Assembly (NCBI GenBank): GCA_021108075.1
Contig: JAIORP010000029.1
Location: forward strand, 10,311 to 74,310
DNA from: Candidatus Omnitrophota bacterium
Lineage (GTDB): Bacteria; Omnitrophota; Gorgyraeia; Zapsychrales; Zapsychraceae
Reading direction: 5' to 3'
Length of the DNA: 64,000 bases
Below, one piece after another: positions 848-57,364 of the stretch (position 1 is the stretch's first letter; the number at the start of each line of letters is the position of its first letter). Under the pieces are notes generated by a model. That model made no database searches and had not been told where the DNA came from. It saw only the letters and a program-made list of their open reading frames with translations. The translations under genes and the position numbers were made by a program.

Positions 848-1390
848 ATGTTTCTAATGGTCGAAACGATTAAAAAAAGTGAATTGAAAAATTATATTCG
901 GGATATTCGTGACTTTCCAAAAGAAGGAATTCTTTTTAAAGATATCACAACCCTGTTGAAAGATAAGGACGCTTTTAAAAAGGCTGTCGACCTGATGGCC
1001 AAGAAATATAAAAAAGCAGGCGTCGATTATGTCGTTGGGGTTGAAGCCCGTGGTTTCATTTTTGGCGCTGCGGTTGCCTATAAACTCGGCGTGGGATTTG
1101 TGCCTGTCCGCAAGAAAGGCAAATTGCCGGCCAGAATAAGCGCGATCACGTATGATTTAGAATATGGCACAGACACTCTGGAAATTCATGAAGATGCCAT
1201 CCCGGCTAAGTCCAAGGTTCTTATTGTGGACGACCTTTTAGCAACTGGCGGCACGATTCGGGCTGTAGCCGATTTATTGAAAAATTTAAAAGCGGATACC
1301 ATTGGGGCAGCGTTTTTAATTGAATTGCGTTTTCTGAAAGGAAAAAAGAAACTGCAAGACTTAAATCTTTTTTCGTTATTGAAATACTGA
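848..1390 (+). CDS. apt: adenine phosphoribosyltransferase
   Basis: Contains the PRTase motif VLIVDDLLATGGT and GVEARGFIFGAAVAYKLGVGFVPVRKKGKLP. Length 180 aa is typical of Apt. Confidence 0.9.
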   Translation: MFLMVETIKKSELKNYIRDIRDFPKEGILFKDITTLLKDKDAFKKAVDLMAKKYKKAGVDYVVGVEARGFIFGAAVAYKLGVGFVPVRKKGKLPARISAITYDLEYGTDTLEIHEDAIPAKSKVLIVDDLLATGGTIRAVADLLKNLKADTIGAAFLIELRFLKGKKKLQDLNLFSLLKY

Positions 1391-1476
1391 TACCAAAACC
1401 GATTTTATTTTTTTGACGCTAATGTAAAAATATCAGAATTGAGATAGAACAATTCATTAATGGATCTGGTATGATG
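1386..1476 (+). repeat. Copy A of a conserved intergenic element with terminal inverted repeats (MITE-like / promoter cassette)
   Basis: taccaaaaccgatttt...aatatcagaattgagatagaacaattcattaatggatctggtatgat; near-identical copies at 18784, 32810, 44257 and 57296 (reverse). Confidence 0.6.
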
Positions 1477-1648
1477 TGATCTCAGTGTCAAATGGATGCC
1501 GTTTATTGACGGAATAAATTCTCAATCACATTTTTTTTTGTCTGAGATCGGGTGTGAGTTGTAAAGATTGTTTTTTTATTGTTTTATGTTTGCCAGAAAT
1601 TCCTTCCATCCGTCGGCTGTTAAACAACCAAAAAGTATTTGATACAAA

Positions 1649-4063
1649 ATGCGTTTAAGACAAAATCACATTATTTGTTTTTTTATATTGATCATTACTT
1701 TTTTCGCTTTTCTGCCCGCCTTGAGCGGTGAATTCCTGCTTTGGGATGATGATACCCATGTTTTGAATAATCGTTACGTGTCCTCTTTGTCGTTTGACAG
1801 TGTGAAGGGGATGTTCACAAGCCGCGTGAATGATATTTATATCCCATTAACGACGTTTGTTTTCGCGCTGGAATATCATTTCGCTCAATTTAATCCCATC
1901 GTTTTTCATTGTGTGAATCTTTTTCTGCATCTAGGTGTTTGTGTTCTTGTTTTCTGGTTGGCTTTGCGATTAAGGCTTTCTACCGTCGGGGCCTGTGTCG
2001 CCACTCTGATTTTTGCCGTGCATCCGATGCGGGTTGAATCTGTCGTGTGGATCACAGAGCTTAAAGATGTGCTCTACGCGTTTTTTTATTTGGCCGCGGT
2101 CCATGCGTATCTCAATTATTTGCGATATCCTTTTCAGGATAAAAAACTGAAGCCCAAACCGGCAATGGGTTGGTTGGTCTGGACGATTGTGTTTGGGAGT
2201 TTGAGTGTTTTGGCCAAGCCAATGGCTTTAAGCTTACCCTTAATTTTGTTGTTGCTGGATTGGTTTTTAGAGCGGGATCTCAGCCGCCGTTATTTTTTCG
2301 AGAAGATATGGGTGGCCATACCTGTCTGGGGGATCACATTGTGCACGTATTTAGCGCATGCCCGGTTGCCGTCTGAAACCAGTTTTCCCGGGGGCCTGAT
2401 CTGGATCTGGTCCTTTGTTTTTTACTGGACGCAGTTTTTTATCCCGGTCTACAACGTGCCGATTTATGAACTGCCCCAACCGATCGACCTTGGTGTTTAT
2501 GAGTACTACATTTCCGTGATGGCTTTTATACTTATTTTGTATTCTTTCTGGCGTTTCCGTCGGAACAAATGGTATATCTTTGCGGTCGGGTATTTCTTTT
2601 TCTCGATTTTCTTTTTGCTGCGATGGGACGCGGGCTACGACACCAATATGATCGCTGACCGTTTTATGTATTTGCCGGGTCTGGGATTTTGTCTCTTGCT
2701 TGGCAAATGGCTGGACGAGTTCTGGTATGAACGAAGACGAAGAAAGACTGCTTTGGTTCTGAGCGTTTGCGTTGTCGGCTTTTTATTTGCGCGCACCAAT
2801 CAACTCAGCCGGGTTTGGCGGACCAGTGAGTCCCTGTGGGACCATGAGTTAAAATATTATCCGACCCAACACGTCGCATTGACCAATAAGGCTAATGTTT
2901 TGTTAGAGCAGGAAGCGTATCAAGGCGCCTTGCGCGAGTCGCGTGATATCTTCGCCCGGCAGGCCCGGGGCGAGTTGAAGGATCTTGATCCTGAGCAGCG
3001 TCAGGTGCTTGGGAAAGTTTATTATCTGCGCCATCTTTATCGCTCCGCCATTAAAAGCAATCCGGAGTCTTATGACGCGAAATACAATCTGGCCCATTTG
3101 TACCGGGAGATGGGAAAGAACAGCAAGGCCATTGATCTTTACCGAAACATTATCGAAAAAAGTCCCGCCTATGAAGACGCTTATTTTGCTCTGGGGGATA
3201 TGTACCTGGTTGCGAATCGTGTGGAAGAGGCGTTAGGTATTTATCAACGGATTCTGTCACTTTGGAAGAAAGAGGAACGGTTTTATGTCGCTGTGGTCCT
3301 GGCCTTGAGTGAGCAGAGACATTTAGAAAATAAAGACAAACATCTGGTGCAGGCCATGCGCCTTGAGGTGCTTGAAAATTATATCGCCTTGATCAATGCC
3401 AAGCCGATCCAGACCGAATCGTATAAAAAATTAGGACTGATTTACCTCAGTGTAGGGGAAGACAACAGAGCGGTTTCAGCCCTGCAGGCTGTGCTGGATG
3501 AAAGACCGCGGGATATCGATGCGTTAATGTATCTCGGGCAGGTTTTTCGTAATCAGGGCCGGTTCAGGGATGCCTTGGGAACTTTTAAAAAGGTTTATGC
3601 CCTTGATCCTCAGCACATCGACGCCTTGTTCCAGCAGGGTGTCACTTATTTCCGCATGAATGATTTTGACCAGGCCCAGAAAATTTTTTTGGAGGTGACA
3701 GGCCTTCAGCCGGACCATGGCCGGGCCTATTATAATTTGGGGTATATTGCTGAAAAGACCAGCGCGCTCAAGGATGCCATGCAGTGGTATCAGAAGGCTG
3801 TCGAGCATGATCCGCGCAATCCAGAGGCCTATTACAATTTAGGGAATGTTTACGCTGTCCTGGAAATGCATTCTAAATCCAGGTTCTATTACCGACAGGC
3901 ACTGGATATGAATCCCGGGTATACGGACGCTGCGGTAAATTTATCCACGATTTATTATCTGGACGGTGATTTTACCCGGGCCTTGCAATATTTGGATGAG
4001 GCCGTTAAACTAGGGTATCAGCCCCCGGCTGAATACTTACAAATTTTAACCCCCTATCGGTAG
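1649..4063 (+). CDS. Membrane protein with N-terminal multi-pass GT39/PMT-like domain and C-terminal TPR repeats
   Basis: About 10 predicted TM helices in the first 400 aa, followed by repeated TPR-like A..Y..G/A...Y motifs (AYFALGDMY, AYYNLGYI, AYYNLGNVY). Confidence 0.7.
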   Translation: MRLRQNHIICFFILIITFFAFLPALSGEFLLWDDDTHVLNNRYVSSLSFDSVKGMFTSRVNDIYIPLTTFVFALEYHFAQFNPIVFHCVNLFLHLGVCVLVFWLALRLRLSTVGACVATLIFAVHPMRVESVVWITELKDVLYAFFYLAAVHAYLNYLRYPFQDKKLKPKPAMGWLVWTIVFGSLSVLAKPMALSLPLILLLLDWFLERDLSRRYFFEKIWVAIPVWGITLCTYLAHARLPSETSFPGGLIWIWSFVFYWTQFFIPVYNVPIYELPQPIDLGVYEYYISVMAFILILYSFWRFRRNKWYIFAVGYFFFSIFFLLRWDAGYDTNMIADRFMYLPGLGFCLLLGKWLDEFWYERRRRKTALVLSVCVVGFLFARTNQLSRVWRTSESLWDHELKYYPTQHVALTNKANVLLEQEAYQGALRESRDIFARQARGELKDLDPEQRQVLGKVYYLRHLYRSAIKSNPESYDAKYNLAHLYREMGKNSKAIDLYRNIIEKSPAYEDAYFALGDMYLVANRVEEALGIYQRILSLWKKEERFYVAVVLALSEQRHLENKDKHLVQAMRLEVLENYIALINAKPIQTESYKKLGLIYLSVGEDNRAVSALQAVLDERPRDIDALMYLGQVFRNQGRFRDALGTFKKVYALDPQHIDALFQQGVTYFRMNDFDQAQKIFLEVTGLQPDHGRAYYNLGYIAEKTSALKDAMQWYQKAVEHDPRNPEAYYNLGNVYAVLEMHSKSRFYYRQALDMNPGYTDAAVNLSTIYYLDGDFTRALQYLDEAVKLGYQPPAEYLQILTPYR

Positions 4064-4083
4064 ATGTTGTTTTTCCACTTAAT

Positions 4084-4157
4084 GCGCCTATAGCTCAGAT
4101 GGATAGAGCGCGGCCCTCCTAAGGCCGGCGTGGGAGGTTCGAGTCCTCCTAGGCGCA
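4084..4157 (+). tRNA. tRNA-Arg (anticodon CCT)
   Basis: Cloverleaf readable: acceptor GCGCCTA/TAGGCGC, D-arm GCTCAGATGGATAGAGC, anticodon stem CGGCC/GGCCG with loop CTCCTAA, T-arm GGAGGTTCGAGTCCTCC. Confidence 0.85.
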
Positions 4158-4780
4158 TTCTTTTTTCATGAAGGTTCCGCGGCTTTAGCGAAGCAGTACA
4201 AAGCTTTGTTCATATCGCCTACGCGAAGCGGAATTTGTTCCCGCGTCGCTTCAGGCATTAACCCGGAAGCGACACAAAATTATTACCCGCTGTATTCCTG
4301 ACATATCAGGCTGAATGAGAACAGAATTTGTCAGAGGTGATCTTCATGCCAATTTCAGTCCTGGATTGAAGATTTCCTGTCGGCCTGTTGGACTTGAATT
4401 TTGAATTCGCGTAGAGCACGAAAAAGAGAATTCTCTGGCACCTGTATTCGGCATGGATCCCGATTGTATTCAGTCGTTTAATGGAGTGAATTCCTCTGAG
4501 CTCTGCTCCGAGGAGATTCACTTTTGATGAATTTGAGTGAAATTATCGACTGGAAACCGGAAAAACGCGAAAAATTGTCGATTTTGGTCTGTGAGCTTAT
4601 ACAAAGAGGATACGGGATCTTAACTGGACATTAATTACGATAATCGTATATACTTCAAGTATTTATAGGAATTCAGTTATATTGTTTTTTTCAGGAAAAC
4701 CCTTTCCCGACGAGGTAAAATTTAGAAAAATGCCTGTTGTTAGGCTGATTAGTCCATTATAAAAATAATCTTAATAATTG

Positions 4781-4809
4781 TTGACACTGGAAGGCTCATG
4801 TGTAAAAAT
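4781..4809 (+). promoter_or_regulatory. Candidate sigma-70 promoter upstream of the first porin-like gene
   Basis: TTGACA, 17-nt spacer, then TGtAAAAAT (extended -10-like). It would give a ~180-nt leader. Confidence 0.3.
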
Positions 4810-4990
4810 GTGTCGTATTTTTACATAATCCAGAGATGATTCTAATTAGACTCAGAAAGGGGGGAGGAAAATTTAAGGTCGGGGTCATCAAGAAACTGGC
4901 ATAGTTTCGAAAGTAACCGGGATAGTTGAGTTGTTTTATCTTGGCCTATATAGATTTATAAAGCAAAATTTTTACTTTAAGGAGAATCAA

Positions 4991-6406
4991 ATGAGAAAAA
5001 GTATACTTTTGGCAATGATCATGGTCGCCTTTGTGGCCATGCCGGCATTTGCTAGTGTACAAAACATTAAAATCAGTGGTGGGGTTGATTCCTACTGGGC
5101 ATACCGTGAAGACTTCGATTTCGGTTATGAAGCAACCACAATCGGTGGGGACAAAATTCAAAACATATTCTTCACCATCACGAGCTTACAAGTCGATGCG
5201 GACTTAACCGACAACGTGACAGCAACAATCGCGTTAGTTAATGAAAGGGCCTGGGGTAATGATACTGATGCTACTCGAGGGCTTTCAAATTCAGGGGCTC
5301 AAACTGACGTTGAAATTGACCTCGCGTTTGTCACACTAAGAGAAATGCTTTATTCACCATTAACACTGGTTATCGGTCGTCAAAGATTACCAAAGTACGG
5401 TAATGGTTTAATCGTATCCAAGGGTACAGGCGTCGGCAATTCAAATTTAACCGATGTCGTCCAGGACTACCGTGGGATCAAGGCTATGGACGCCATCCGC
5501 GCTATTCTGGATTATGATCCGTTAACCGTTGAAATCATCTATGGTAAATTCGATTCTAACACAGTCGCGGGTGCTTCTGAGGAAGACGATGATGTCGATC
5601 TTTACGGCATCCAGACCGCTTATGAATTAGGCGATGACATGAACACATTGGTCGAAGCTTATTTCTGGGCAAAAATCAACAAAGAAACAACACAAGCAGC
5701 TGCAAATTGTGATCTTAAACCTGACACAGTTTATACACCTGGTTTACGCGCCAGCACAACCCCGATCGAAGGTTTAACCGTGTCCGGGGAAATCGCGATG
5801 CAATCAGGAACCAAAGTTATCAGTACCGCAAGAGATGCAGAAAATCAAAAACGAAAAGCCATGGCCGCTGAATTCATGGCCACGTATCAAGTTCCTGTGG
5901 CTGAAGATTATAATCCGGTTGTTTCTTATGATTATATTTATGCTTCAGGGGATAGCAACCCAGCAGATGAAACATCATCAGGTGAAGTTTCCAGAAATAA
6001 ATGGACGGCCTGGGATCCAATGCTTGAAGGCACATTAGGCGGAAGCAAGATTTTCAACGCCTTGTTCAGCTTAACAAACGTGCATGTTCATTCTTTTTCA
6101 TTGCAAGCCAATCCGATGGAAGACGTGACTTCTAAGGTCGTTTTTTCAAAATATTGGTTAGATAAAGAAACAGACGGAACAGCATGGACATTAAACCGAA
6201 CAGATACTTCAGGTGCAGAAGTTGTCGGCGCGCAAGACGATGAAACAGACCTGGGTTATGCTGTTGATCTCTACACAACTTATGACTACACAGAAGATGT
6301 TTCTATCGGAGCATTAATGTCATGGTTCGTGCCAGGCGATGTCTTTAGTAAAGACAATCAAGACGCAGCTTCACAAGTTATGGTTGATGTTAATGTTGAT
6401 TTTTAA
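4991..6406 (+). CDS. Porin-like outer-membrane beta-barrel protein, paralog 1 (ORF track start 4931; ATG 4991 with RBS AAGGAG preferred)
   Basis: Signal peptide MRKSILLAMIMVAFVAMPAFA; alternating amphipathic beta-strand pattern; C-terminal ...VNVDF ending in an aromatic residue, as in OM beta-barrels. It is a clear paralog of 6813-8210. Confidence 0.6.
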   Translation: MRKSILLAMIMVAFVAMPAFASVQNIKISGGVDSYWAYREDFDFGYEATTIGGDKIQNIFFTITSLQVDADLTDNVTATIALVNERAWGNDTDATRGLSNSGAQTDVEIDLAFVTLREMLYSPLTLVIGRQRLPKYGNGLIVSKGTGVGNSNLTDVVQDYRGIKAMDAIRAILDYDPLTVEIIYGKFDSNTVAGASEEDDDVDLYGIQTAYELGDDMNTLVEAYFWAKINKETTQAAANCDLKPDTVYTPGLRASTTPIEGLTVSGEIAMQSGTKVISTARDAENQKRKAMAAEFMATYQVPVAEDYNPVVSYDYIYASGDSNPADETSSGEVSRNKWTAWDPMLEGTLGGSKIFNALFSLTNVHVHSFSLQANPMEDVTSKVVFSKYWLDKETDGTAWTLNRTDTSGAEVVGAQDDETDLGYAVDLYTTYDYTEDVSIGALMSWFVPGDVFSKDNQDAASQVMVDVNVDF

Positions 6407-6438
6407 TTAACGTTCATCCGTATTTGTTTATGTTTAAT

Positions 6439-6472
6439 CCCCTGTTGCCTTTGGGCAGCAGGGGATTTTTTT
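6439..6472 (+). terminator. Rho-independent terminator after porin paralog 1
   Basis: CCCCTGTTGCC-tttg-GGCAGCAGGGG hairpin followed by ATTTTTTTG. Confidence 0.7.
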
Positions 6473-6812
6473 GTCCTCCTTCAGGCTCGTTCAGATTTTT
6501 CTGAACAACAAGTCTTTACTTTTCAACATGCCCATAGTTTGCGTATGTAATAAACGGTATAAGGTTGTAGGACTCTCTTAAGTGAGATAAGTATAAATGT
6601 ATTTAAACATTTGCGTTGTTTCCGTCGAGTCATGTATTAACGAAAAATAAATTGAAAAAATTCACAAAATTTATTGACCGCTTTTTATATGTATGCAAGA
6701 ATTCATGAAGTAATCAATTTATTTAAAGAAGCGTATTATTTTGATACAGATGTTGCTTGTCTTTCATATATATGTCAATAATTCAAATTGTATCTTCGGA
6801 GGAAAAACACAG

Positions 6813-8210
6813 ATGAAAAAAATTGGTTTAACAATTCTTATGTTGGCCGTAGCATCTACCTCAGCCTTTGCCGCTGTGCAAAATTTGAAAGTCAGTGGAA
6901 GTGTCCGCTCAACCTTTATTCATCGGGAAAATTTTGATCTGGGGAAAGCCCCGACAGGTGATGAAATCCAGGACATCTTCATTACCAATACCCATTTGCG
7001 GCTCGACGCCGACTTGACCGACAAAGTCTCGGCGACGATCGATTTGTTAAATGAACGGGCATGGGGTAATGACACGGCAAGCGCGGGGCTGGAGACCGGC
7101 GTGAAGATCAATCTGGCCTATGTGACCTTGCGTGAGATGCTTTATTCGCCATTGACGATTGTCGTCGGACGGCAGTTGCTCAGGTATGGTAACCAATTTG
7201 TTTTAGGGGAAAGCAAAGAACCTGTTTTTCCGCCGGGATCAAGCAATCTCAGTTTTGTGGCCTTTGATCAAAGTGACGTGGAATCCTTTGACGCGGTGAA
7301 GTTTATATTAGACTATCAACCTTTAACGATTGATATCTTCTATGCCAAGATAGATTCCAATACGGTCGCCGGGGCCTCTGAAGACGATGATGATATCGAC
7401 TTTTATGGGATCTATTCCGTGTATGATTTTGAGAATGTGGCCAAGACCAAGATTGACGCCTATTTTCTGGCTAAGATTGATAAGTATGTCGCGAATAACG
7501 CATCTCCAGCGCCGGCAACAGGTATTAAACCGGATACAATTTACATGCCGGGTTTTCGGGTCAGCAGCGGTTTAGCCGAAGGCTTGTGGACCTCGCTTGA
7601 GGTTGTCTGGGAAAGGGGGAATAAAGTTTTGAACAGTGCTACTCCGGCGGAGAACCAAAGGCGCGAGGCCTTTGCGACACAGTTATTGACTTTTTACCAG
7701 CTGCCGGTCCTGAAAGACTATAAACCCGCCCTTATCCATGAATTTACATATACAACCGGGGATAGTAATAAAACGGATACCGCTTATTCCGGAGAAGTTT
7801 CAAGAAATGTCTTCACCGCCTGGGACCGTCTGTACGAAGATCAGGATAATGGTTCGATCTTGAACACGATTGTTTCTTTATCGAACGCAGTGGCGCACAC
7901 CGTTGCCTTTCAGTTTTATCCTGTGGAAGAGTTAAAGACGGTTATCGCCTGGACCGGTCTATGGACGAACACGCCGATTTATTCCGCTTCAGAAATCATT
8001 GCCCAGCCTGACGGCTTTAACGTCGTGACGTTGACCCCGGGTCAACGTGAGATCGGTTATGAAATCGATTTGTTCATGTATTATCAATACACCGAAGATG
8101 TGGAATTTAATCTTTCGCTTGGTTGGGTCATCCTTGGTGATGCTGTCAATGATACGGCTAATCCGAACGGGCCGTTCCAGGTCCTGGCCGGGACGAAAGT
8201 TAATTTTTAG
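6813..8210 (+). CDS. Porin-like outer-membrane beta-barrel protein, paralog 2 (ORF track start 6741; ATG 6813 with RBS GGAGGA preferred)
   Basis: Signal peptide MKKIGLTILMLAVASTSAFA. Shares long blocks with paralog 1 (LTD.V.ATI.L.NERAWGNDT, LAYVTLREMLYSPLT.V.GRQ, NTVAGASE.DDD.D.YGI). C-terminal ...KVNF. Confidence 0.6.
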   Translation: MKKIGLTILMLAVASTSAFAAVQNLKVSGSVRSTFIHRENFDLGKAPTGDEIQDIFITNTHLRLDADLTDKVSATIDLLNERAWGNDTASAGLETGVKINLAYVTLREMLYSPLTIVVGRQLLRYGNQFVLGESKEPVFPPGSSNLSFVAFDQSDVESFDAVKFILDYQPLTIDIFYAKIDSNTVAGASEDDDDIDFYGIYSVYDFENVAKTKIDAYFLAKIDKYVANNASPAPATGIKPDTIYMPGFRVSSGLAEGLWTSLEVVWERGNKVLNSATPAENQRREAFATQLLTFYQLPVLKDYKPALIHEFTYTTGDSNKTDTAYSGEVSRNVFTAWDRLYEDQDNGSILNTIVSLSNAVAHTVAFQFYPVEELKTVIAWTGLWTNTPIYSASEIIAQPDGFNVVTLTPGQREIGYEIDLFMYYQYTEDVEFNLSLGWVILGDAVNDTANPNGPFQVLAGTKVNF

Positions 8211-8264
8211 TAAAATTTTAACTTGTTGATATTTAAAGGTTTAAACCTTTAATAAAATAGCACA

Positions 8265-8299
8265 AAAGCATAAACGATTTAGCGTTTATGCTTTTGTTG
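8265..8299 (+). terminator. Rho-independent terminator after porin paralog 2
   Basis: AAAAGCATAAACG-atttag-CGTTTATGCTTTT, then a GTTGT T-rich tail. Confidence 0.7.
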
Positions 8300-8536
8300 T
8301 GTCTGGCCCTGCTGTCCGGGAAGTGTCCTGAAGTTTTTCATATTTTCGCAATTAACCTTTCTGGTCGGGATATTAAATTTTATTTTTTGTTTCTCGTCGA
8401 CAAAGTCATTTTTTTATGGCTAAAAAAATATGAAAATATGTTTTATTATGTATTTTAATTTGTTAAGATACACATAATAAGGATTAAAATAACATAAATA
8501 GCGAAACTAAGCATAAAAACGAGAGAGTTAGAACCC

Positions 8537-10567: not shown

Positions 10568-11326
10568 ATGTCATTATTTGAAAAAATATTAAGCGGGCTG
10601 AAAAGCCTGGTTGATTTATTTCCTCGTAGAAAAAAGAAATACAATCGTAATATTCCAAAAGTCCGGCGCACACCGCCTGCCGATAGAAAGAAACCGCAAT
10701 CACGCTCGACAAGGGCTTTCGGCGCGAGACCAAAAAAGAAGCAGACCTCAGCACGATCAACAAAACGCAGACAAACGGGCTCTTCTGCGAAGGCCTCCGC
10801 AAGCAAGATTTCTCCCTCAAAAAAACAGACCGGAAAAAAAACGGAGCCTCGTTATGGAAAAGAGACAATTGTAAAGAAGGCATCCGGGACACCAAAGAAG
10901 GCGCTTGCGGAAACACCGAAAGCCACCCGCCGCAAAGATTCGAAATCTTCAGCGAAGACGCCAGGGAAACAGCGGCCGGGCTCCCGGCGCAAGGCCAGGC
11001 TGATGGAGCGATCGCCTTCAAAAAGGCGAACTCAGCCCAGAGGAAAAATTCAATCAGGAAAACTGAATTCGTTGGATGAGGAAAAATACATTGGAGCCAT
11101 CACCCATTATTTCTCCCGGATAAATGTCGTGGTCTTAAAAATGGAGAATGGCCCATTGCGTCTGGGAGATGATATACATATCAGGGGCAGGAAAACGAAC
11201 TTTAAGCAACCCGTCGAATCTTTACAAGTCGAAAGTTTTGATGTTAAAAAAGCCGAGAAAAATCAATTGGTTGGACTGAAAGTCCTCAAGCCGGTGACGG
11301 TCGGTGATCAGGTCTTTAAAATTTAA
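10568..11326 (+). CDS. Highly basic low-complexity protein (K/R/S/T-rich N-terminal 170 aa) with a C-terminal EF-Tu-domain-2-like beta-barrel
   Basis: The N-terminus is about 35% Lys+Arg (RRKKKYNRNIPKVRRTPPADRKKPQSRSTRAFGARPKKKQ...). The C-terminus GAITHYFSRINVVVLKMENGPLRLGDDIHIRG...LVGLKVLKPVTVGDQVFKI resembles a translation-protein beta-barrel. The overlapping ORFs 10555-11021(-) and 10611-10874(+) are composition artefacts. Confidence 0.55.
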   Translation: MSLFEKILSGLKSLVDLFPRRKKKYNRNIPKVRRTPPADRKKPQSRSTRAFGARPKKKQTSARSTKRRQTGSSAKASASKISPSKKQTGKKTEPRYGKETIVKKASGTPKKALAETPKATRRKDSKSSAKTPGKQRPGSRRKARLMERSPSKRRTQPRGKIQSGKLNSLDEEKYIGAITHYFSRINVVVLKMENGPLRLGDDIHIRGRKTNFKQPVESLQVESFDVKKAEKNQLVGLKVLKPVTVGDQVFKI

Positions 11327-11643
11327 TGGAGTGAATTCCTCGTAGCTCTGCTGCGAGGAGAAGCACTCCCGGCGGGAATTTTCCACCTTTATTTAAGGCG
11401 GGGATAAGAGTCCGCTCCAGCGGCTTTATCGCTGGACAACGTCTTGCGCCGGGAGCGCTTGAAGCAGAATGCCCCACGGGTGTGAACCCGCGGGATCTAT
11501 TGGATATGGGTGGAATGAATGATCGTGAGAAATTTTATGCCGACATTGTCATCGGCGCACTGGCCTGCTTTTTTAATTAAGGCCTGGCAAAAATATCAGG
11601 ACAGTTTAAACCATTAACGCAAAAATTAGGGAAAGAGGAGTAT

Positions 11644-13355: not shown

Positions 13356-14108
13356 ATGGATAATTATTTTATTAACAATCCGATATTTTTAAAATATAAG
13401 AAGACCTTTAACTTTTCGAAATTCCGCAGGGAAAAATGTTTGAAGTCGGTTTTCGTTAATGAAAGGATCGTTGAACTGCCATTTGTGTTGCAGGCGCTGA
13501 GCGCTTTGCCGCAAAGGAGTTGTGTCCTTGATGTCGGCTGCAACGAGAGTCCGCTGGCTTTACAATTGGCCTGTTTGGGGTATCGGGTGACAGGATATGA
13601 TTTCCGCGGCTACCCGTATAAACACCCTAACTTGGATGCTTTGAAGGGTGATATATTGAACATGCCGTTTCAAGATGATTATTATGATGCGGTAACCGCC
13701 GTTTCCACGGTCGAACATCTTGGTCTGGGTTTTTATGATGACCCCCTGATGGCTGAAGAGTCTGACCGACGGGCCATTCAGGAAATAAAACGGGTCCTAA
13801 AGAAAGATGGCTTATTGCTTCTCACTGTTCCTTATGGCCGGAAGTCGATCAGTGAACAGCAACGCATCTACAACCAGGGCAGTTTGCGATGCTTATTGCA
13901 AGATTTTGAAGTTGAGGTTATATCTTTTTTTAAGAATGTCTTTGTCGATCCTGAAAAGTTGAACACCTGGGTGCAAACGTCCCAGTCGGATATCAGTCAA
14001 GTCGCTTCTGCTCAGACGACCAATGGTGTTTGCCTGGTTAAGGCGAGAAATAAAAAGAAAAAAGGCAAAATGGAAGCAGGGAATAAGTTTGGACGAGGAC
14101 ATGATTAA
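13356..14108 (+). CDS. class I SAM-dependent methyltransferase
   Basis: Motif I VLDVGCNESPLALQLACLGYRVTGYD, with an acidic loop after it. Confidence 0.7.
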   Translation: MDNYFINNPIFLKYKKTFNFSKFRREKCLKSVFVNERIVELPFVLQALSALPQRSCVLDVGCNESPLALQLACLGYRVTGYDFRGYPYKHPNLDALKGDILNMPFQDDYYDAVTAVSTVEHLGLGFYDDPLMAEESDRRAIQEIKRVLKKDGLLLLTVPYGRKSISEQQRIYNQGSLRCLLQDFEVEVISFFKNVFVDPEKLNTWVQTSQSDISQVASAQTTNGVCLVKARNKKKKGKMEAGNKFGRGHD

Positions 14109-14303
14109 GAATCGCGGATCAACACACCTGCTGACTCAGCCAGGGATATAGACTTGATGTGCACGGATGCGTTGGTAAGAAAAGGAAAAGAGTTGTTGAT
14201 CGATAGCGGAGTTAACACATAAAACCGAGGGATCAAAGATTGGTCGAGAGGGTGTGTATCGCGATAATTTGTACTCTTTGATGAAGAAAAAGTCGAAAGG
14301 AAT

Positions 14304-16040
14304 ATGCGGATATCCATGAAGAAAGACGGACTCACACGCTGGCTTGATTTCATTCTGCTCAGCTGTGTGATTGTATTTATAACCTGGCAGCCGTTTTATT
14401 TGCACGGTACGCTTAATACGTTTGAGCATGGACTGTATTTGCCAGGGATTCAGGGGATCCTTGATGGGAAAATGCCTTATCGGGATTTTATGTATTTGCG
14501 TGGACCATTTGAATTGTATGTGCCCGCATTCATGATGATGGTTGCCGGTCGAAATGTTGCCGTCCTAGCGACTTATTTTTATGCCGGTACCGTCTTAACA
14601 TTATTAATGTGCCTTTTGATTGCCAGAGAGGTTCTCGATAGGCGCTGGTTGTTGGCGCTCTTTGTTTTTGTCCTCACCGCGCGCACTTTTCCGCGCGTGG
14701 TTTTTACGTATTGGGGTGGGTTGCGCTACGTCTGGGGGCTGTTATCCGTCTGGTTCTTGATAAAATTTTTTAAAAGTTATAAGAAATCATGGTTGTTTTT
14801 CTGTGGGATAACGACGGCGATTGCGTTCTGGACAAGTATCGAAATGGGCTTTTGCTCAGGCATGATGGCGGGGCTGAGCTTGGTGATCATCGCCGGTCTA
14901 TCCAGGTTAAAGGAATCGGATCATAAACCGAAGATACCGCTGATCTCTGGGTTCGTTGTTTTTGGAGGAGCCGTTTTGGTGCTCAGTGTGCCCTACGCGA
15001 TATATTTAATGGCCAACGGGGCTTTGATACCTTTTATCGATAATGTGCTGACCATTGTCACACGCCTAAACCAAACCTTTCCACAAACGGATCTTGTTCC
15101 ATTGAACCTCGGTGATGTGCTGCTTGGGATGCTAAGCCCTGCCAGTAAGAATTTTCGTCATTTAACGCCTATCTACACCTATCTGATCATGGCGGGTTAT
15201 CTGTACATCCGGGCGCGTTTGCGGCGTTGGCAAACACAGGATTCCTGCGTGCTGGTAATTTGGATCTATGGGGCCTTGCTCTATGCGACGTCTTTTCGTA
15301 ATCTTTGGGCTTCCCAGTTTGAGATGGCCTTGCAACCAGAGAAAATTTTGTTGTTCTGTTTGATTCACCTTTTAATTGACTTTTTGTTGCGCTGTCGCGA
15401 CGATTTGAGAACGAATTTGCAACCGGAACAGGTCAGCCGGCTTAATTGGTGGAAAAAGCGTTTGGGCCTAGGGCTGATTTATTTTTACCTTGTCAGTGTC
15501 ATTATGTCTTCAATCATTTACCCTTTTGTGCGTTTTTCCAGGCGATTTACCAGCATTAAATATGTTTTTTGCCTGCTGAAGGGGGAAGATCCCGCGCAAT
15601 TGTCTCCGCTCAGGGATCAACAGCAGAAGAAATTAGCCATTCCCCCTCTAAAGGGGCTGACTGTTCCTGCCTGGCAGGCGGATGATTTTTATGAAATCTA
15701 TGACTTTGTCCAAAAAAATGTGCCGGTTGATGAGCCCGTATTGTTTTATCCGGAGATGGCCGCTTACTATTTTATTGTTGACCGACCTTATTTAAGCCGT
15801 TTTCCCATGGGGACTTTTCCCTGGTTTAATGAGCGTTGGTACGGGGACTTTAAATGCGCCCTCATTGGGCAAAAACCACGTTACGCTATCTTCCCCAAGG
15901 AGTTACCGGATTATTTTGACAAGCAACATTTTACTGTCGAAGCCAATCGGGTCAAATATAGCGAAACGATGGATTTTATCAGGACAAATTATAAACCGAT
16001 TAAGAAGACACATTCATTTGTTATTTGGGAGAATATATAG
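14304..16040 (+). CDS. Large polytopic membrane protein (putative membrane glycosyltransferase-like; hypothetical)
   Basis: More than 10 predicted TM segments across 578 aa. No soluble catalytic motif was recognised. Confidence 0.45.
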   Translation: MRISMKKDGLTRWLDFILLSCVIVFITWQPFYLHGTLNTFEHGLYLPGIQGILDGKMPYRDFMYLRGPFELYVPAFMMMVAGRNVAVLATYFYAGTVLTLLMCLLIAREVLDRRWLLALFVFVLTARTFPRVVFTYWGGLRYVWGLLSVWFLIKFFKSYKKSWLFFCGITTAIAFWTSIEMGFCSGMMAGLSLVIIAGLSRLKESDHKPKIPLISGFVVFGGAVLVLSVPYAIYLMANGALIPFIDNVLTIVTRLNQTFPQTDLVPLNLGDVLLGMLSPASKNFRHLTPIYTYLIMAGYLYIRARLRRWQTQDSCVLVIWIYGALLYATSFRNLWASQFEMALQPEKILLFCLIHLLIDFLLRCRDDLRTNLQPEQVSRLNWWKKRLGLGLIYFYLVSVIMSSIIYPFVRFSRRFTSIKYVFCLLKGEDPAQLSPLRDQQQKKLAIPPLKGLTVPAWQADDFYEIYDFVQKNVPVDEPVLFYPEMAAYYFIVDRPYLSRFPMGTFPWFNERWYGDFKCALIGQKPRYAIFPKELPDYFDKQHFTVEANRVKYSETMDFIRTNYKPIKKTHSFVIWENI

Positions 16041-16616: not shown

Positions 16617-18767
16617 ATGAATATCGGAAAAATGAGTATTCCCTATGGGGATCAAACATTAACGATTGAGACAGGAAAATTAGCCAAGCAGGCCAATGCG
16701 GCCGTTACAGTTTCGCTTGGGGGTACAGTTGTTCTCGTGACAGCTTGTATGGCTAAGAAACCGCGAGAAAATATAGATTTTTTCCCTTTAATGGTTGAAT
16801 ATCAAGAGAAAACGTATTCATCCGGGCGAATCCCCGGAGGGTTTTTTAAACGTGAAGGACGCCCAACTCAAAAAGAAATTTTAACATCCCGTCTGATCGA
16901 CCGTCCCATCCGCCCACTTTTTCCTGAGGGATGCTTTAACGACGTCCAGGTTGTCGCGACGGTCTTAAGTAGTGACGGTGAATATGACTCAGATATCCTT
17001 GCCATTATTGGCGCGTCATGCGCTTTGACGATTTCGAATATTCCTTTTGATGGTCCGATCGGAGCTGTTCGTTTGGGTCTGATCGGTGAGGAATTTGTTT
17101 TAAACCCTACTTTTGAGCAACGCGCTGAAAGTTCTATGGAGCTTATCGTCGTTGGTCACTCTGATGGGATTGTCATGATTGAAGGCGAGGCAGATCAGGT
17201 TCCGGAAGCCAAGGTCGCTGAGGCCCTGCAACAAAGTTTTGAACAACTACAATCGATTCGTGAAGCACAATCTAAATTCCGCCAGGAAGTGGGGCAAGAG
17301 AAATCGGACGTTGAGTTGTTTAATCCTCATCCGGATTTAAAAGGAAAAGTTGCTGAAATGTGCCAAGGCCGTTTGGCAGAAATATATCAGATTGCAGATA
17401 AAGGTCAACGGGAAGAAGGTTTATCTCTGTTGTTATCTGAAATCGTTTCAGATATGAGTGTTTTTGAAGCCTATACCGTGAAAGAGCGGGAAGTGAGCGC
17501 CGGTACGATTAAAAAGCTGTTTGACCAGATTGAATATGAAGAAGTCCGTCGTTTGATTTTTGAAGACGGCAAGCGGGCTGACGGGCGAGGTCTGGATGTT
17601 GTCCGTGATATATCTTGCGACGTCGAGGTCTTACCACGCACACACGGCTCAGCATTATTTACGCGGGGTCAAACACAAAGTTTAGCTGTCGTTACGTTAG
17701 GCACTAAGAAAGACGAGCAGCTTATAGAGGCGTTGGATGGGGTGACTTACAATAATTTTATGCTGCATTATAATTTCCCTTCTTTTAGTGTTGGTGAAAC
17801 CCGTCCGATGCGCGGACCAGGCCGTCGTGAAATAGGCCACGGCGCGTTAGCGGCCAAGGCTTTAAAGGCGATCCTCCCCGGGCGCGAAAAATTTCCTTAT
17901 ACGATTCGTATCGTTTCAGAAATTTTAGAATCCAATGGATCATCAAGTATGGCCAGCGTCTGTGCCGGTTGTTTGAGCTTGATGGACGCCGGGGTTCCCA
18001 TTTCAGCTCCTGTTGCCGGTATCTCTGTCGGAATTGTTACCAAAGAAGATGATTACCGTCTCCTTACAGATATTATGGGGCTAGAAGATCATTTCGGGGA
18101 TATGGACTTTAAAGTGGCGGGCACGCGTCAAGGCGTGACAGCCATCCAGCTAGATCTTAAAGTCAAAGGACTTTCTGTTGAGATCCTTATGAAAGGCATG
18201 GAGCAATCCAAGATTGCCCGAGATTTGATCCTCGATAAAATGCAAGCAACCATTGCTGTTCCAAAGGATGATATTTCTTTGTACGCTCCGCGTATTATCA
18301 CCACGCAAGTTCCAGTTGAGAAAATCGGTGAAGTGATAGGTCCGGGTGGCAAGGTCATCAAGAAAATTATTGAAGAGACCGGGGTGGAATCCATCGACAT
18401 TGAAGATGATGGCCGTGTCTTAATCGCGTCCTTAAATAAGGAATCTGCGATGAAGGCCCTGGCATACGTCAATGGGTTGGTGGAACTGCCGGTCGTTGGG
18501 AAGATTTACGATGCCGAGGTTGCCAAAGTTGCTAATTTCGGGGCATTCTGCGAATTTTTACCAGGAAGGCAGGGACTTGTACATGTTTCTGAATTTTCAT
18601 CCACCTTTATTAAAGATTTATCAAAGGTTGTGAAAGTGGGAGATAAATTTAAAGTCAAATTGGTTGAAATTGATGCCCAAAAACGGATGAACTTGAGCAA
18701 GAAACAAGCGGAAGCTAAGCCCGAAGGGGAGCAAGACACGCAAAAAGATCAAGAAGACGTTAAATAA
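16617..18767 (+). CDS. pnp: polyribonucleotide nucleotidyltransferase (PNPase)
   Basis: Two RNase PH domains, then KH and S1 domains (GPGGKVIKKIIEETG; VGKIYDAEVAKVANFGAFCEF), in 716 aa. Confidence 0.95.
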   Translation: MNIGKMSIPYGDQTLTIETGKLAKQANAAVTVSLGGTVVLVTACMAKKPRENIDFFPLMVEYQEKTYSSGRIPGGFFKREGRPTQKEILTSRLIDRPIRPLFPEGCFNDVQVVATVLSSDGEYDSDILAIIGASCALTISNIPFDGPIGAVRLGLIGEEFVLNPTFEQRAESSMELIVVGHSDGIVMIEGEADQVPEAKVAEALQQSFEQLQSIREAQSKFRQEVGQEKSDVELFNPHPDLKGKVAEMCQGRLAEIYQIADKGQREEGLSLLLSEIVSDMSVFEAYTVKEREVSAGTIKKLFDQIEYEEVRRLIFEDGKRADGRGLDVVRDISCDVEVLPRTHGSALFTRGQTQSLAVVTLGTKKDEQLIEALDGVTYNNFMLHYNFPSFSVGETRPMRGPGRREIGHGALAAKALKAILPGREKFPYTIRIVSEILESNGSSSMASVCAGCLSLMDAGVPISAPVAGISVGIVTKEDDYRLLTDIMGLEDHFGDMDFKVAGTRQGVTAIQLDLKVKGLSVEILMKGMEQSKIARDLILDKMQATIAVPKDDISLYAPRIITTQVPVEKIGEVIGPGGKVIKKIIEETGVESIDIEDDGRVLIASLNKESAMKALAYVNGLVELPVVGKIYDAEVAKVANFGAFCEFLPGRQGLVHVSEFSSTFIKDLSKVVKVGDKFKVKLVEIDAQKRMNLSKKQAEAKPEGEQDTQKDQEDVK

Positions 18768-18783
18768 TACCAATTTTATAAAA

Positions 18784-18874
18784 TAATTACCAAAACCGAT
18801 TTTGTTTTTTTCGACTCTTTAGTCGAGAATATCAGAATTGAAATAGAACAATTCATTAATGGATTTGGTATAAG
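18784..18874 (+). repeat. Copy B of the conserved intergenic element
   Basis: ttaccaaaaccgattttgtttttttcgactctttagtcgagaatatcagaattgaaatagaacaattcattaatggatttggtataag. Confidence 0.6.
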
Positions 18875-32723: not shown

Positions 32724-32809
32724 TCCTGCTTGTAGGGATAGACCGAATATTTTTTTGTGTTGAGGAACGTCTTCGCCCGATGAAGTTTTATAAATAAAAT
32801 TATGCATTA

Positions 32810-32894
32810 ATACCAATTCCATTAAATAATGACTAAAACTAATTCTGCTTTTCAGAATTAAGATAGAACAATTTGTTAATGGATTTGGTATAAT
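32810..32894 (+). repeat. Copy C of the conserved intergenic element
   Basis: ataccaattccattaaataatgactaaaactaattctgcttttcagaattaagatagaacaatttgttaatggatttggtataat; the two ends form inverted repeats (ataccaattccattaa / ttaatggatttggtat). Confidence 0.6.
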
Positions 32895-32919
32895 TTGTCT
32901 TTTTAGTGAAAAATATGTT

Positions 32920-33384
32920 ATGGTTAAGATTATAGAAGCAAAAGTTAAAGGACGGGGCGTAAGGGTTGCTATTGTCGTGTCCCGTTTCAACAAGTTCATA
33001 ACAGAGAAGTTATTAAACGGTTGTGTGAATGAACTTGTCCGCTGTGGCGTCCGTAAAGGTGATATTGTCGTTGCCTGGACACCGGGTGCTTTTGAGGTCC
33101 CTTTAGTGGCCAAGAGATTTGCTCGAAAGAAAACAGTTGACGTTGTCATCGCTCTTGGAGCTGTGATACGGGGTGAAACTTATCATTTTGAAATGGTCGC
33201 GCAGGGAGCAACGCAAGGTATCATGCAGGTTAGTCTGGATACGATGAAACCGGTTATTTTTGGTGTCTTGACAACTGAAACCCTTGATCAGGCGTATAAA
33301 CGGTCAGAAGAAGATGGTGATAATAAAGGTAAGGATGCGGCTCAAGCAGCTATTGAAATGGCCTGTTTATTGGAAAAGATATAA
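32920..33384 (+). CDS. ribH: 6,7-dimethyl-8-ribityllumazine synthase
   Basis: RVAIVVSRFN, GAFEVP and ALGAVIRGET are typical RibH blocks. Confidence 0.9.
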   Translation: MVKIIEAKVKGRGVRVAIVVSRFNKFITEKLLNGCVNELVRCGVRKGDIVVAWTPGAFEVPLVAKRFARKKTVDVVIALGAVIRGETYHFEMVAQGATQGIMQVSLDTMKPVIFGVLTTETLDQAYKRSEEDGDNKGKDAAQAAIEMACLLEKI

Positions 33385-44254: not shown

Positions 44255-44256
44255 TT

Positions 44257-44365
44257 ATACTAATCCCATTAAATAATCGCCAAAACCGGTTTTGTTTTTC
44301 TTGACGTTAAGGCAAGAATATCAAAATTGAAATAGAACAATTAATTAATGGATTTAGTATTATTG
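44257..44365 (+). repeat. Copy D of the conserved intergenic element
   Basis: atactaatcccattaaataatcgccaaaaccggttttgtttttcttgacgttaaggcaagaatatcaaaattgaaatagaacaattaattaatggatttagtattatt; terminal inverted repeats atactaatcccattaa / ttaatggatttagtat; internal hairpin TTCTTG-N9-CAAGAA. Confidence 0.6.
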
Positions 44366-44942: not shown

Positions 44943-45839
44943 ATGACCGACCATGAAGCAACGATTGAACAATTTATGGATTACCTGGTCATTGAGCGGG
45001 GCCTGGCTGAAAATACGATTTTGGCCTATCGACGGGATTTGATTAAATATTTGCACTTCATGATAATAAAATTGGGTCGTTCATTGACAAGTATTCAAAG
45101 AGATGATATTACCCGTTTTATGTTGGATGAAAAGGATAAGGGCTTATCGGCGAATTCCATCAGCCGGGCGTTGGCGGCGATTAAAATGTTTCATCGTTTT
45201 CTTGTCCGCGAAAGAATCAGCAAACAGGATCCCTCCACACTGGTTGAAACCCCGAAGTTATGGAAAAAAGTTCCAGATGTTTTGAGTGTGGAAGAAATCG
45301 AAAAGATGATCCATGCTTCAAAGGGTAAACACTGGCAAGCCATCCGTGATAATGCCATATTGGAATTATTTTATGCCAGCGGAGTCCGTGTATCGGAGTT
45401 GACACATCTAAAACTAGAAAATATTAACTTGGAAATAGGGTATATTCGCTGTATCGGCAAGGGGCGCAAGGAAAGGCTGATCCCCATCGGAAAGAGAGCC
45501 AGAGTTGCCTTGCAGAAGTATTGTGATTTAGTCCGTCGGGGATTACTGAAAGATCAGACGATACAGACTGTTTTTTTGAGTCGGTTGGGAAAGAAAATAA
45601 GTCGGCAAAGCATTTGGAAGCTTATTAAGCAATACGCCCAGAAAGCGGGCATAAAGAAAACTATCAAACCGCATACCTTGCGGCATAGTTTTGCCACGCA
45701 TTTATTGGAACATGGCGCAGATTTAAGGGCTGTTCAGGAGATGTTAGGGCACTCCGACATATCTACTACACAGATATACACACATGTTGACAAAGAACGG
45801 TTAAGATCAATTCATAAACAGTATCATCCAAGGGGATGA
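44943..45839 (+). CDS. xerD: Tyrosine site-specific recombinase XerD/XerC
   Basis: N-terminal LAENTILAYRRDL, and catalytic R...HxxR...Y residues (LRHSFATHLLEHGADLRAVQEMLGHSDISTTQIYTHV). Confidence 0.8.
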   Translation: MTDHEATIEQFMDYLVIERGLAENTILAYRRDLIKYLHFMIIKLGRSLTSIQRDDITRFMLDEKDKGLSANSISRALAAIKMFHRFLVRERISKQDPSTLVETPKLWKKVPDVLSVEEIEKMIHASKGKHWQAIRDNAILELFYASGVRVSELTHLKLENINLEIGYIRCIGKGRKERLIPIGKRARVALQKYCDLVRRGLLKDQTIQTVFLSRLGKKISRQSIWKLIKQYAQKAGIKKTIKPHTLRHSFATHLLEHGADLRAVQEMLGHSDISTTQIYTHVDKERLRSIHKQYHPRG

Positions 45840-55841: not shown

Positions 55842-57237
55842 GGAGTTTGTTGTGTTGACATTGCGTGTTGATACGATAGCTAAAATTGTAAAAGGTCAAT
55901 TGACTGCGGGATCCGGTCCCGAATGCCCCGAAGGCATTTCGATCAACACACGAACAATCAAAAAGGGTGAAATTTTTATTGCTGTTCCAGGTAAACGATA
56001 TGATGGCCATCGATTTATTTATCAGGCGATCGAAAAGGGGGCCAGCGCATTGATTGTTCATAAAAGGATCAAGAAAAAATCCTGCAAGATTCCTGTTGTG
56101 ACAGTTGATAATACTGTTGCGGCTTTAGGGCATTTAGCCGCGTATTACAGACGGCAATTTCAGATCCCTATTATCGCAGTCACAGGCAGCGCAGGTAAAA
56201 CAAGTACAAAGGAGTTGATCGCCAGTGTTTTAAGTCAGAAATTTAATGTTTTAAAGAATGAAAGATCAGAAAATAATCATTTTGGTGTTCCTTTAACATT
56301 ATTAAAATTGACCCACAAACATCACGTGGCCGTGCTCGAAGTCGGTACCAGCCAGAAAGGCGATATCTCTTGCCTGGGTCAAATTATCAAACCGGATATG
56401 CTTGTTTTTACGAATATCGGGGCATCCCATCTGGAAGGATTAGGTTCGATCAGAGGGGTGTTTAATGAGAAGAAAAGTCTAATAAAATTTTTAACCAAAA
56501 AAGGGCAGATGATACTCAATTTAGATGACATGTATCTTAAGAAATTGGTGGGGCAGGCGCCTTCCGTATCGAAAATGACCTATGCTGTTCAACAAAAGGC
56601 CGATTTTCAAGCCAAGAATTTAAATTTTGACAATAACAACCGTATCCAGTTTAAAGTCAATCGAGAGTTGTTTACCTTGCCGACACCGGCCTATCATCAG
56701 GTTTATAACGCATTGGCTGCGATTGCTGTCGGCCGTCATTTTGGTTTGACGTTATCTGATATCAATAAGGGATTGAAGACGTCGCTGCATTGTTCTGGAC
56801 GCCAGAAGATACAATCTATTGGAGGAGTTACGATCATTGATGATACGTATAACTCCAATCCCCTTTCCTTCAGGAGCTCCATCAATTCCTTGAACACGAT
56901 CCATGCAAAGGGCAAGAAAATTTTAGTCGGTGGAGATATGCTGGAGTTAGGAGAATTATCTGAAAAGTGGCATAGGCAGATCGGCAAGGACATTCTCCAC
57001 TCATCGATTGATGTCTTCATCGGTTTTGGGAGAAATGCGCGCTTTATCTATGATGAATGTTGCCGTGACGGAGATAAAGTGCTGGCAAAATCATTTGTTT
57101 ACCTGCATTATTTACATCGTTTTTTAGCTAAAATTATTCAGCCCGGGGACATTGTCCTCATTAAAGGTTCGCGGGGAATGCATTTGGAAAGGACTGTTAA
57201 CTTCTTGGAAGAGAATTTGTCTCAATCACGAAAATGA
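55825..57237 (+). CDS. murF: UDP-N-acetylmuramoyl-tripeptide--D-alanyl-D-alanine ligase
   Basis: GSAGKTSTKE P-loop and Mur ligase middle/C domains. Overlaps murE by 17 nt. Confidence 0.85.
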   Translation: MPQKCEEFVVLTLRVDTIAKIVKGQLTAGSGPECPEGISINTRTIKKGEIFIAVPGKRYDGHRFIYQAIEKGASALIVHKRIKKKSCKIPVVTVDNTVAALGHLAAYYRRQFQIPIIAVTGSAGKTSTKELIASVLSQKFNVLKNERSENNHFGVPLTLLKLTHKHHVAVLEVGTSQKGDISCLGQIIKPDMLVFTNIGASHLEGLGSIRGVFNEKKSLIKFLTKKGQMILNLDDMYLKKLVGQAPSVSKMTYAVQQKADFQAKNLNFDNNNRIQFKVNRELFTLPTPAYHQVYNALAAIAVGRHFGLTLSDINKGLKTSLHCSGRQKIQSIGGVTIIDDTYNSNPLSFRSSINSLNTIHAKGKKILVGGDMLELGELSEKWHRQIGKDILHSSIDVFIGFGRNARFIYDECCRDGDKVLAKSFVYLHYLHRFLAKIIQPGDIVLIKGSRGMHLERTVNFLEENLSQSRK

Positions 57238-57295
57238 TGGGTTTATGATTTTATTTTAGAATATGCGTGAGTTCATATTCGGCTAATTATATAAT

Positions 57296-57364
57296 AAATT
57301 ATACTAAATCCAATAATGAATTGTTCTATTTCAATTCTGAAAAGCAGAATCGGTTTTGGTATGA
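57296..57364 (-). repeat. Copy E (inverted, shorter) of the conserved intergenic element, between murF and mraY
   Basis: Reverse complement reads ataccaaaaccgattctgcttttcagaattgaaatagaacaattcattattggatttagtataat. Confidence 0.6.

Follow-up and report, generated by a model that had tools for sequence, protein, structure and literature searches.

What is the repeat that recurs in five intergenic gaps of a 64,000-nt stretch from a Candidatus Omnitrophota bacterium (assembly GCA_021108075.1, contig JAIORP010000029.1, positions 10,311 to 74,310; the whole stretch is called the window below)? A first-pass annotation had described it as resembling a mobile repeat, while leaving room for a dispersed promoter/operator cassette or a small structured RNA. 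We found that the five are copies of one 60–103 bp element, which align along their full length and are all present where that annotation had placed them. The family is probably a MITE (for miniature inverted-repeat transposable element), that is, a small non-coding, non-autonomous DNA element mobilised in trans, with a TNA target preference like that of the IS1031 group of the insertion sequence (IS) family IS5. The mobile reading was strengthened by a TNA duplication at the flanks, by orthologous sites that are filled in one lineage and empty in another, and by a homologue in a relative that has kept the termini. Omnitrophota are uncultured, and their mobile DNA and transcription signals are almost unknown. 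The analysis covered about 76 kb of the host genome (the window with 9.1 kb upstream and 3.3 kb downstream) and about 100 kb from relatives; copies are labelled c1 to c5 in window order, and contigs with L numbers belong to other assemblies or to relatives.

The five copies differ in length in a modular way. Copy c5 (57302–57361, minus strand, 60 bp) lies in the murF/mraY gap, inverted relative to the genes, and represents the minimal core, to which an outer 5' arm and a central hairpin may each be added. Copy c1 (1391–1471, plus strand, 81 bp), between apt and the gene of a TPR protein, is a short form with the inner 5' arm and the central hairpin module, about 21 nt longer than c5; c3 (32811–32890, plus strand, 80 bp), between ribBA and ribH, has instead the outer 5' arm and a linker, about 20 nt, and no central hairpin. 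Both additions are present in the full forms c2 (18768–18870, plus strand, 103 bp; outer arm, inner arm and central hairpin TTTTCGACT/AGTCGAGAA), between pnp and ftsK, and c4 (44258–44359, plus strand, 102 bp), downstream of ligA. A covariance model built from the copies scored c1 to c5 at 75, 107, 89, 115 and 53 bits, respectively, found none besides in the window, and found no copy on the same contig in the 9.1 kb upstream or the 3.3 kb downstream.

Motif counts also exceed chance. The window has the 22-nt core ATAGAACAATTNNTTANTGGAT exactly five times, where shuffles predict 0.10; a longer core gave four matches at up to three mismatches, with none expected; and the terminal 16-mer TTAATGGATTTGGTAT, for which 1.6 occurrences would be expected, is present seven times, always at an end of one of the five copies. 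The element has a GC content of 24–30%; the host sequence has about 42%, with a positive GC skew throughout and nearly all long open reading frames (ORFs) on the plus strand. A protein family scan of the gap neighbours recovered a phosphoribosyltransferase (apt), the TPR protein, PNPase, FtsK, RibBA, RibH, LigA and MurF, with MraY recognised by protein similarity, which confirms the flanking genes as first named; only the "lipoprotein" downstream of ligA proved to be an uncharacterised 180-aa protein with no Pfam match. No conserved open frame with a start codon runs across the copies, and three translated element frames, joined as one chimeric query, had no match among 5.8 billion protein sequences. 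A 154-aa minus-strand ORF (32685–33149) spans c3 and overlaps ribH; it is almost certainly spurious, the element being open in one reverse frame.

Where, then, does the element begin and end? The ends are imperfect inverted repeats of the form 5'-TACCAA(A/T)TCCATTAA...TTAATGGATTTGGTA-3'; TACCAAWTCCATTAA and TTAATGGATTTGGTA are found at the element ends, and stem P1 (see below) is 89–90% paired. The terminal inverted repeats claimed earlier thus hold up in every copy, by alignment and by pairing counts. The bounds needed some adjustment: c2 begins at 18768 with its outer arm and not at 18784, and the ends were reset to TACC..GGTA. We tested the boundary with symmetric inward shifts of 0–4 nt combined with flank lengths of 2–6 nt. 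With the ends at TACC...GGTA, 3-bp TNA direct repeats appear on both sides: TGA at 1388–1390 and 1472–1474 for c1, TAA at 18765–18767 and 18871–18873 for c2, TAA at 32808–32810 and 32891–32893 for c3, and TTA at 44255–44257 and 44360–44362 for c4. Copy c5 has TCA/TAA in the orientation of the element, with one mismatch (on the plus strand, TTA at 57299–57301 and TGA at 57362–57364). Altogether 14 of 15 flank positions match and four of five pairs are perfect, while other registers that include a variable base gave no perfect pair at all. The variable middle base agrees as a direct, not an inverted, repeat in four of the five copies, and with two elements of a relative added (see below) six of seven pairs are perfect. 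The flanking 3-bp TNA repeat, a feature that the first-pass annotation had proposed looking for and had itself missed, is a target-site duplication. Copies of the short and of the long form each carry their own duplication, so both forms have moved. At c4 the termini themselves show a matching variant at both ends, TACTAA.../...TTAGTA.

The position of the duplications relative to genes is not even. The upstream repeat is the stop codon of apt (TGA) at c1 and that of pnp (TAA) at c2, and at c4 it stands directly 3' of the ligA TAG stop codon. If insertion were equally likely at every TNA in the gaps as reconstructed, the chance that three of five copies fall within 3 nt of a stop codon would be about 0.008, and the chance that two of five fall exactly on one about 0.08. 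There is thus some preference, or selection, for the extreme 3' end of genes. Because TAA and TGA fit TNA, copies are often found on or beside the upstream stop codon, which is restored by the duplication.

Comparison with relatives showed sites that are filled in one lineage and empty in another. MraY and LigA are 100% identical to proteins encoded by a "Candidatus Omnitrophica bacterium" MAG on a 98.8-kb contig, of which the window spans positions 31,451–95,450. Beyond that genome the host lineage is isolated (nearest MraY 85% identical, the next 74–78%; nearest LigA 60%), and the covariance model found no copy in 14.5 kb of the 85% relative (L007) or in 21 kb each of L008 and L013. In L008, L013 and the P0003 contig, murF and mraY overlap or are spaced by 1 nt; in the window they are separated by 147 nt, with c5 in between. 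The nearest relative by LigA search (GCA_029261055.1, here L024; LigA 60% identical) has the same gene order from ligA to mraZ; its ligA shares 8 nt with the gene that follows, which leaves the c4 site empty. Conversely, the model matched L024 (50 bits, E 1.6e-8) between a PolyA-polymerase-like gene and rbfA, whose gap in the window is 26 nt and holds no element. Filled and empty sites were thus seen between lineages at three places, and none at the strain level.

The full element of L024 reads TAA|TACCAATTCCATTAAATAATGACC...TTTAATGGATTTGCTA|TAA, with an inverted repeat that reaches about 21 nt. From ATACC on, its first 24 nt are identical to c3, and it keeps the central hairpin TTCTCG/CGAGAA; it lacks the ATAGAACAATT block, which is invariant in the window, and the GAATTG/CAATTC palindrome, so that the termini are conserved and the interior largely is not. 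Such a pattern is expected if the constraint is recognition by a transposase. Directly next to the full element lies a 30-nt mini element that consists solely of the two terminal repeats (TACTAAATCTATTAAATAATAGAATTAGTA|TAA; L024 14703–14732, minus strand, with the same sequence at L025 5916–5945), with TAA on both sides. It is inserted at the duplicated TAA of the full element, sharing one TAA with it and having its own on the other side. On the plus strand the PolyA-polymerase-like gene runs 6 nt into the mini element and stops at a TAA within the terminal repeat, so that the insertion supplies the present stop codon of this gene. Conserved termini, a diverged interior, TNA flanks and reciprocally filled and empty sites are what a transposon predicts, unlike a promoter motif or an RNA gene.

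In the 85% relative L007 the murF/mraY gap (8385–8488, 104 nt) is without the element and contains a GC-rich hairpin, then a T-run, then ATTATAATAAA, which resembles ATTATATAATAAA just upstream of c5 in the window. Judged from this likeness, ATTATAATAAA and ATTATATAATAAA may be an mraY promoter common to both lineages; if so, c5 would lie between its -10 box and the mraY ribosome-binding site.

Does the element act as a structured RNA? All forms are predicted to fold as one long imperfect hairpin of three stems: P1, in which the outer arm ATACCAATTCCATTAA pairs with TTAATGGATTTGGTAT; P2, in which CGATTYTG pairs with CARAATTG and which is common to all copies; and P3, the optional central hairpin. 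Of three central mini-hairpins listed earlier, the third (ATTCTGcttttCAGAAT) is in fact stem P2 of all copies and not the optional hairpin. For the long forms, an alternative main stem between the inner arm and the 3' end was rejected (76% paired, no compensation). The long forms fold far better than shuffles (z -4.3 to -7.6; -4.3 for c2, -6.3 for c3 and -4.7 for c4). Covariation in the stems, which had been proposed as a check, was found in P1/P2/P3: with the five copies aligned, pairing holds in 92% of cells and changes on both sides are seen at five pairs, a result reached by 5 of 500 shuffles, and with the L024 copy added 88% of cells are paired with six compensatory pairs, reached by none of 500. 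Controls in shifted registers gave no compensatory pairs for the five copies and 0–2 overall. On the element strand, G.U outnumbers A.C by 11 cells to 2. All these counts come from five or six related sequences and are anecdotal.

A structured RNA family, either a cis-regulatory, processing or stability hairpin or a small RNA, would place selection on the RNA fold and make dispersal secondary or due to another route. Its stems do covary, with the G.U excess on one strand and the strong fold of the long forms; the unpaired block ATAGAACAATT, 11 nt long, does not vary among the copies of the window, and four of the five copies are co-oriented with the genes, as first reported. However, fold energy is about equal on both strands with no consistent strand preference, one copy (c5) is inverted, no terminator was called at or near any copy, and no Rfam family matched even at E up to 10. 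Furthermore, the invariant block is lost in the L024 homologue, which keeps the termini, whole modules are gained or lost between copies, and a primary RNA role leaves the TNA direct repeats and the reciprocal empty sites unexplained. We therefore regard an RNA family as improbable. Movement of a hairpin by a single-strand (HUH) transposase, as for repetitive extragenic palindromes (REP) and the mosaic elements built of them (BIME) with their RAYT transposases, or as a palindrome derivative of IS200/IS605, would account for an element that is essentially one long hairpin with pairing maintained, for a 4:1 bias in orientation where the GC skew is uniformly positive, and for a second GC-rich hairpin repeat nearby. 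Such families insert beside a fixed tetra- or pentanucleotide on one side, and we know of none with terminal inverted repeats that reach the very ends or with a target duplication; here, terminal inverted repeats and a variable TNA direct repeat stand on both sides. The element is also AT-rich and 60–103 bp long, unlike the GC-rich REP of 20–40 nt, and no HUH transposase was found among the ten element-adjacent proteins, to which the scan was confined within the window. Such an origin is highly unlikely.

The third alternative, a promoter cassette, turned on a conserved block said to end in a perfect extended -10 box, TGgTATAAT. A TATNAT hexamer does stand at the 3' junction of all five copies, with 4–6 of 6 consensus matches, but TG lies one base upstream in c1–c3 only, and a perfect TGnTATAAT (TGGTATAAT) is seen at c3 alone; the junctions of c1, c2, c4 and c5 read TGGTATGAT, TGGTATAAG, TAGTATTAT and TAGTATAAT, respectively. 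Moreover, the motif is not an internal box: it consists of the element end (TTGGTA), the duplicated TNA and one flanking T, and is thus made by the junction. In Correia elements of Neisseria, the -10 box also involves the element terminus beside the duplicated target. By symmetry, a -10-like motif TGnTA-TNA-T may form at either end, facing outward. A sigma-70 scan at each copy found no -35/-10 pair at any 3' junction; the sole element-associated promoter call came from c2, where it lies at the 5' end and on the minus strand (TTGGTA, 18 nt, TATTAT, with TG).

If the family were such a cassette, an extended -10 box with GAATTG-N8-CAATTC as operator would be placed before co-regulated genes. The hexamer at all five 3' junctions is compatible with this, as are the palindrome, present in all five copies and 93% paired, the leaders of about 18–22 nt including a ribosome-binding site that c3 and c4 would give, and the documented MITE-borne promoters of Neisseria and other bacteria (PMC10969869). 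What was looked for as the mark of a pure promoter motif, one regulon with fixed spacing to start codons, is not what the window contains: the start codon lies anywhere between 20 and 174 nt beyond the downstream end of the duplication (20–29 nt for c3, c4 and c5, with 26 nt to the ribH ATG at c3), and the downstream genes, for the TPR protein, FtsK, RibH, the uncharacterised 180-aa protein and MraY, are unrelated. Together with a junction-made hexamer that is perfect only once, the missing -35 elements and the inversion of c5, this speaks against a promoter/operator cassette as the primary identity of the family, which we consider very improbable. The operator reading of GAATTG-N8-CAATTC was rejected separately, since changes in the palindrome break pairs without compensation and it is not conserved in the L024 copy. 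Promoter activity of single copies is another matter. Copies c3, c4 and c5 may have it, with leaders that would contain the ribosome-binding site. The L024 copy and a partial copy before panB are unlikely to, because their ribosome-binding site starts 1–3 nt after the hexamer and the transcript would lack it.

The evidence thus favours a MITE: the family combines small size, absence of coding capacity, terminal inverted repeats, a target-site duplication and dispersed copies. Several points weigh against this identification. Neither an autonomous IS sharing these ends nor a transposase was found in the sequence covered, the scans of genome collections having used the core motif only, and a tyrosine recombinase of the XerC/D type (44943–45839) is the sole recombinase of the window. 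The duplication offers one informative base per copy, with an estimated chance probability of about 0.004–0.03, and a 2-bp TA duplication with ends CC..GG is also compatible, as ATA/TAT is palindromic too. There is no strain-level empty site with alignable flanks, all same-organism assemblies that cover a site carrying the element, and the murF/mraY gap of the 85% relative is too diverged for a clean reconstruction of the empty site. The ends begin with TACC, and the sole IS1031-group example compared (ISLrh, GAACCTGTCTAGTATCT; PMC12016507) begins with GAACC, unlike TACCAAATCCATTAA. Finally, the six compensatory stem pairs, reached by none of 500 shuffles, are not predicted by a simple model of two transposase sites, which hints at an added structural constraint on the stems.

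As for the source of the mobility, insertion sequences of the IS1031 subgroup of IS5 favour TNA targets and generate repeats of 3 bp only (PMC12016507), and the related PIF/Harbinger superfamily and its kin make 3-bp duplications of TWA or TNA (PMC4482050). The family agrees with the exclusive 3-bp TNA duplication by which the IS1031 subgroup is recognised (PMC12016507), and we infer derivation from IS5/IS1031 from the duplication type alone. A DDE transposase encoded elsewhere in the genome would mobilise the element in trans, with both short and long forms serving as substrates. Most copies sit in co-oriented gene strings, c3, c4 and c5 being 20–29 nt from the next start codon; they are probably transcribed through, and the read-through transcript would fold into one long hairpin in the mRNA. 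By analogy with Correia and ERIC, for which promoter, IHF, RNase III and mRNA-stability effects are documented (PMC10969869), some copies may by accident supply outward promoters or alter mRNA stability. A stronger version holds that Omnitrophota have co-opted the mobile module, so that each insertion at a TNA would install an extended -10 promoter that faces outward at the junction and, right after a stop codon, an RNA hairpin under selection; we think this unlikely. If it were true, transcription and mRNA 3'-end stability would be re-wired within long co-oriented gene strings, and selection on the transcript would lie behind the stem covariation, the G.U excess and the stop-codon clustering. 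Any promoter, operator or RNA role of the element is conjectural.

How does the family compare with known repeats? MITEs with promoters, RNase III sites and locations in 3' untranslated regions are known (PMC10969869). Correia elements (CREE/NEMIS, Neisseria) are likewise intergenic MITEs of about 100–150 bp with terminal inverted repeats and length variants in an internal module; they carry outward sigma-70-like promoters and, when co-transcribed, form mRNA hairpins that are cleaved by RNase III (PMC10969869). However, they share no sequence similarity with the present element, duplicate TA instead of the 3-bp TNA that fits the flanks better here, and belong to another phylum, and their promoter and RNase III effects are demonstrated whereas ours are conjectured. 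To our knowledge, the element termini are also unlike the Correia terminal repeat. The family thus works like a Correia element without being a member. ERIC/IRU of Enterobacteria and Vibrio resemble it as imperfect palindromes of about 127 bp, transcribed, intergenic and with internal indel variants, and often lie at gene 3' ends, with an effect on mRNA stability (PMC10969869); ours is shorter and AT-rich, shows no sequence similarity to them and has a clear TNA flank, whereas the duplication and the mobilising enzyme of ERIC are unclear. MITEs derived from IS5/IS1031 and the eukaryotic Tourist-like MITEs of PIF/Harbinger share the 3-bp TNA/TWA duplication and the AT-rich target (PMC12016507, PMC4482050); the present family differs in that no cognate transposase or full-length IS was found, and in its ends, TACC as against GAACC in the IS1031-group example compared. 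BOX and RUP of Streptococcus pneumoniae are small, with a hairpin fold and a modular build like boxA/B/C, and QMITE2 of Coxiella shares the preference for 3' untranslated regions (PMC10969869); the sequences and hosts of all three are unrelated to ours. RUP duplicates TA. By sequence, the element belongs to none of these named families.

In a representative-genome collection, a degenerate core pattern gave none among the matches listed and a stricter 23-mer gave 0 loci; evidently the collection does not include this species, or the word does not occur in exactly that form. A metagenome scan with the 23-mer gave four loci, none with the terminal repeat of the element, which we took as chance. 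Scans of viral contigs with the core and both termini gave 0 matches, and a plasmid BLAST search only chance matches of 30–40 nt. In Rfam 15 only two tRNAs pass in the window, and a permissive search of two copies (E up to 10) reached at best 12–24 bits against thresholds of 37–100. A full-text literature search combining Omnitrophica with MITE and repeat terms returned no paper containing the name "Omnitrophica" among the top results. As far as we found, a bacterial MITE of this kind has apparently not been described before in Omnitrophota.

Are there more copies than five? The element-bearing gaps that were checked are 100% identical in other assemblies of the same organism, with c3 identical in two of them. 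Independent Logan contigs start or stop inside the conserved core of c5 (start of L010), c4 (starts of L017, L018 and L019) and c1 (ends of L022 and L023), and the three c4 contigs, from three runs, all start at the same base, window position 44327. Assembly breaks inside the core imply that the same words of at least 30 nt occur elsewhere in the genome, from which we infer that more copies exist outside the window. Three same-organism contigs from different samples (L009 15142–15282, L010 9882–9997 and L011 5160–5303) end in non-element sequence, 116–144 nt past ftsA; the sequence just beyond is probably variable or holds a further repeat.

The family is an ordinary kind of bacterial repeat, and its most useful aspects are the targeting of stop codons, the -10 motif made at the junction and the explanation of assembly breaks. 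The defined ends and the TNA target explain why contigs of this organism break at these sites, and the family provides markers for strain typing and predicts an IS5-like transposase in these genomes. Copies on stop codons and 20–30 nt before start codons in conserved clusters such as dcw and rib mark places at which to seek promoters, terminators and RNase sites. A caution also follows: what reads as a "perfect extended -10" can arise merely where the end of a transposon abuts the target that it has duplicated.

A second repeat in the region is a 46-nt GC-rich hairpin (TTTAATGGAGTGAATTCCTC..GAGGAGATTCACT; z about -3.9), found at 4477–4522 and 11322–11367 of the window, where the two copies differ on both arms. 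Each opens with TTTAATGGA, known from the MITE terminal repeat as its inner part, and one starts right at the TAA stop codon of the ORF at 10568–11326. A third copy (L020 3661–3706), which is partial and lies some 5.5 kb upstream of the window, is joined to a solo MITE 3' end (GAGGAGATTCACT|GGATTTGGTA|TAA) 12 nt before the panB start codon, and a Logan contig breaks within it. Candidate relations between the hairpin and the MITE are a nested insertion, another subfamily or the end of a parent IS.

In the relative L008 (MraY 78% identical) the cell-wall gene cluster is not continuous: it has a type I restriction-modification system (HsdM, HsdS and HsdR) just upstream of murF (region 1–8471), and between ftsW and murG (13564–15238) a 264-aa gene with no Pfam match together with an AbiEii-family gene. 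In the window, two adjacent paralogues of about 490 aa (4931–6406 and 6741–8210; 471 and 465 aa as called in L020) have an Alginate_exp outer-membrane channel domain and are preceded by a non-coding stretch of about 770 nt that follows a tRNA gene.

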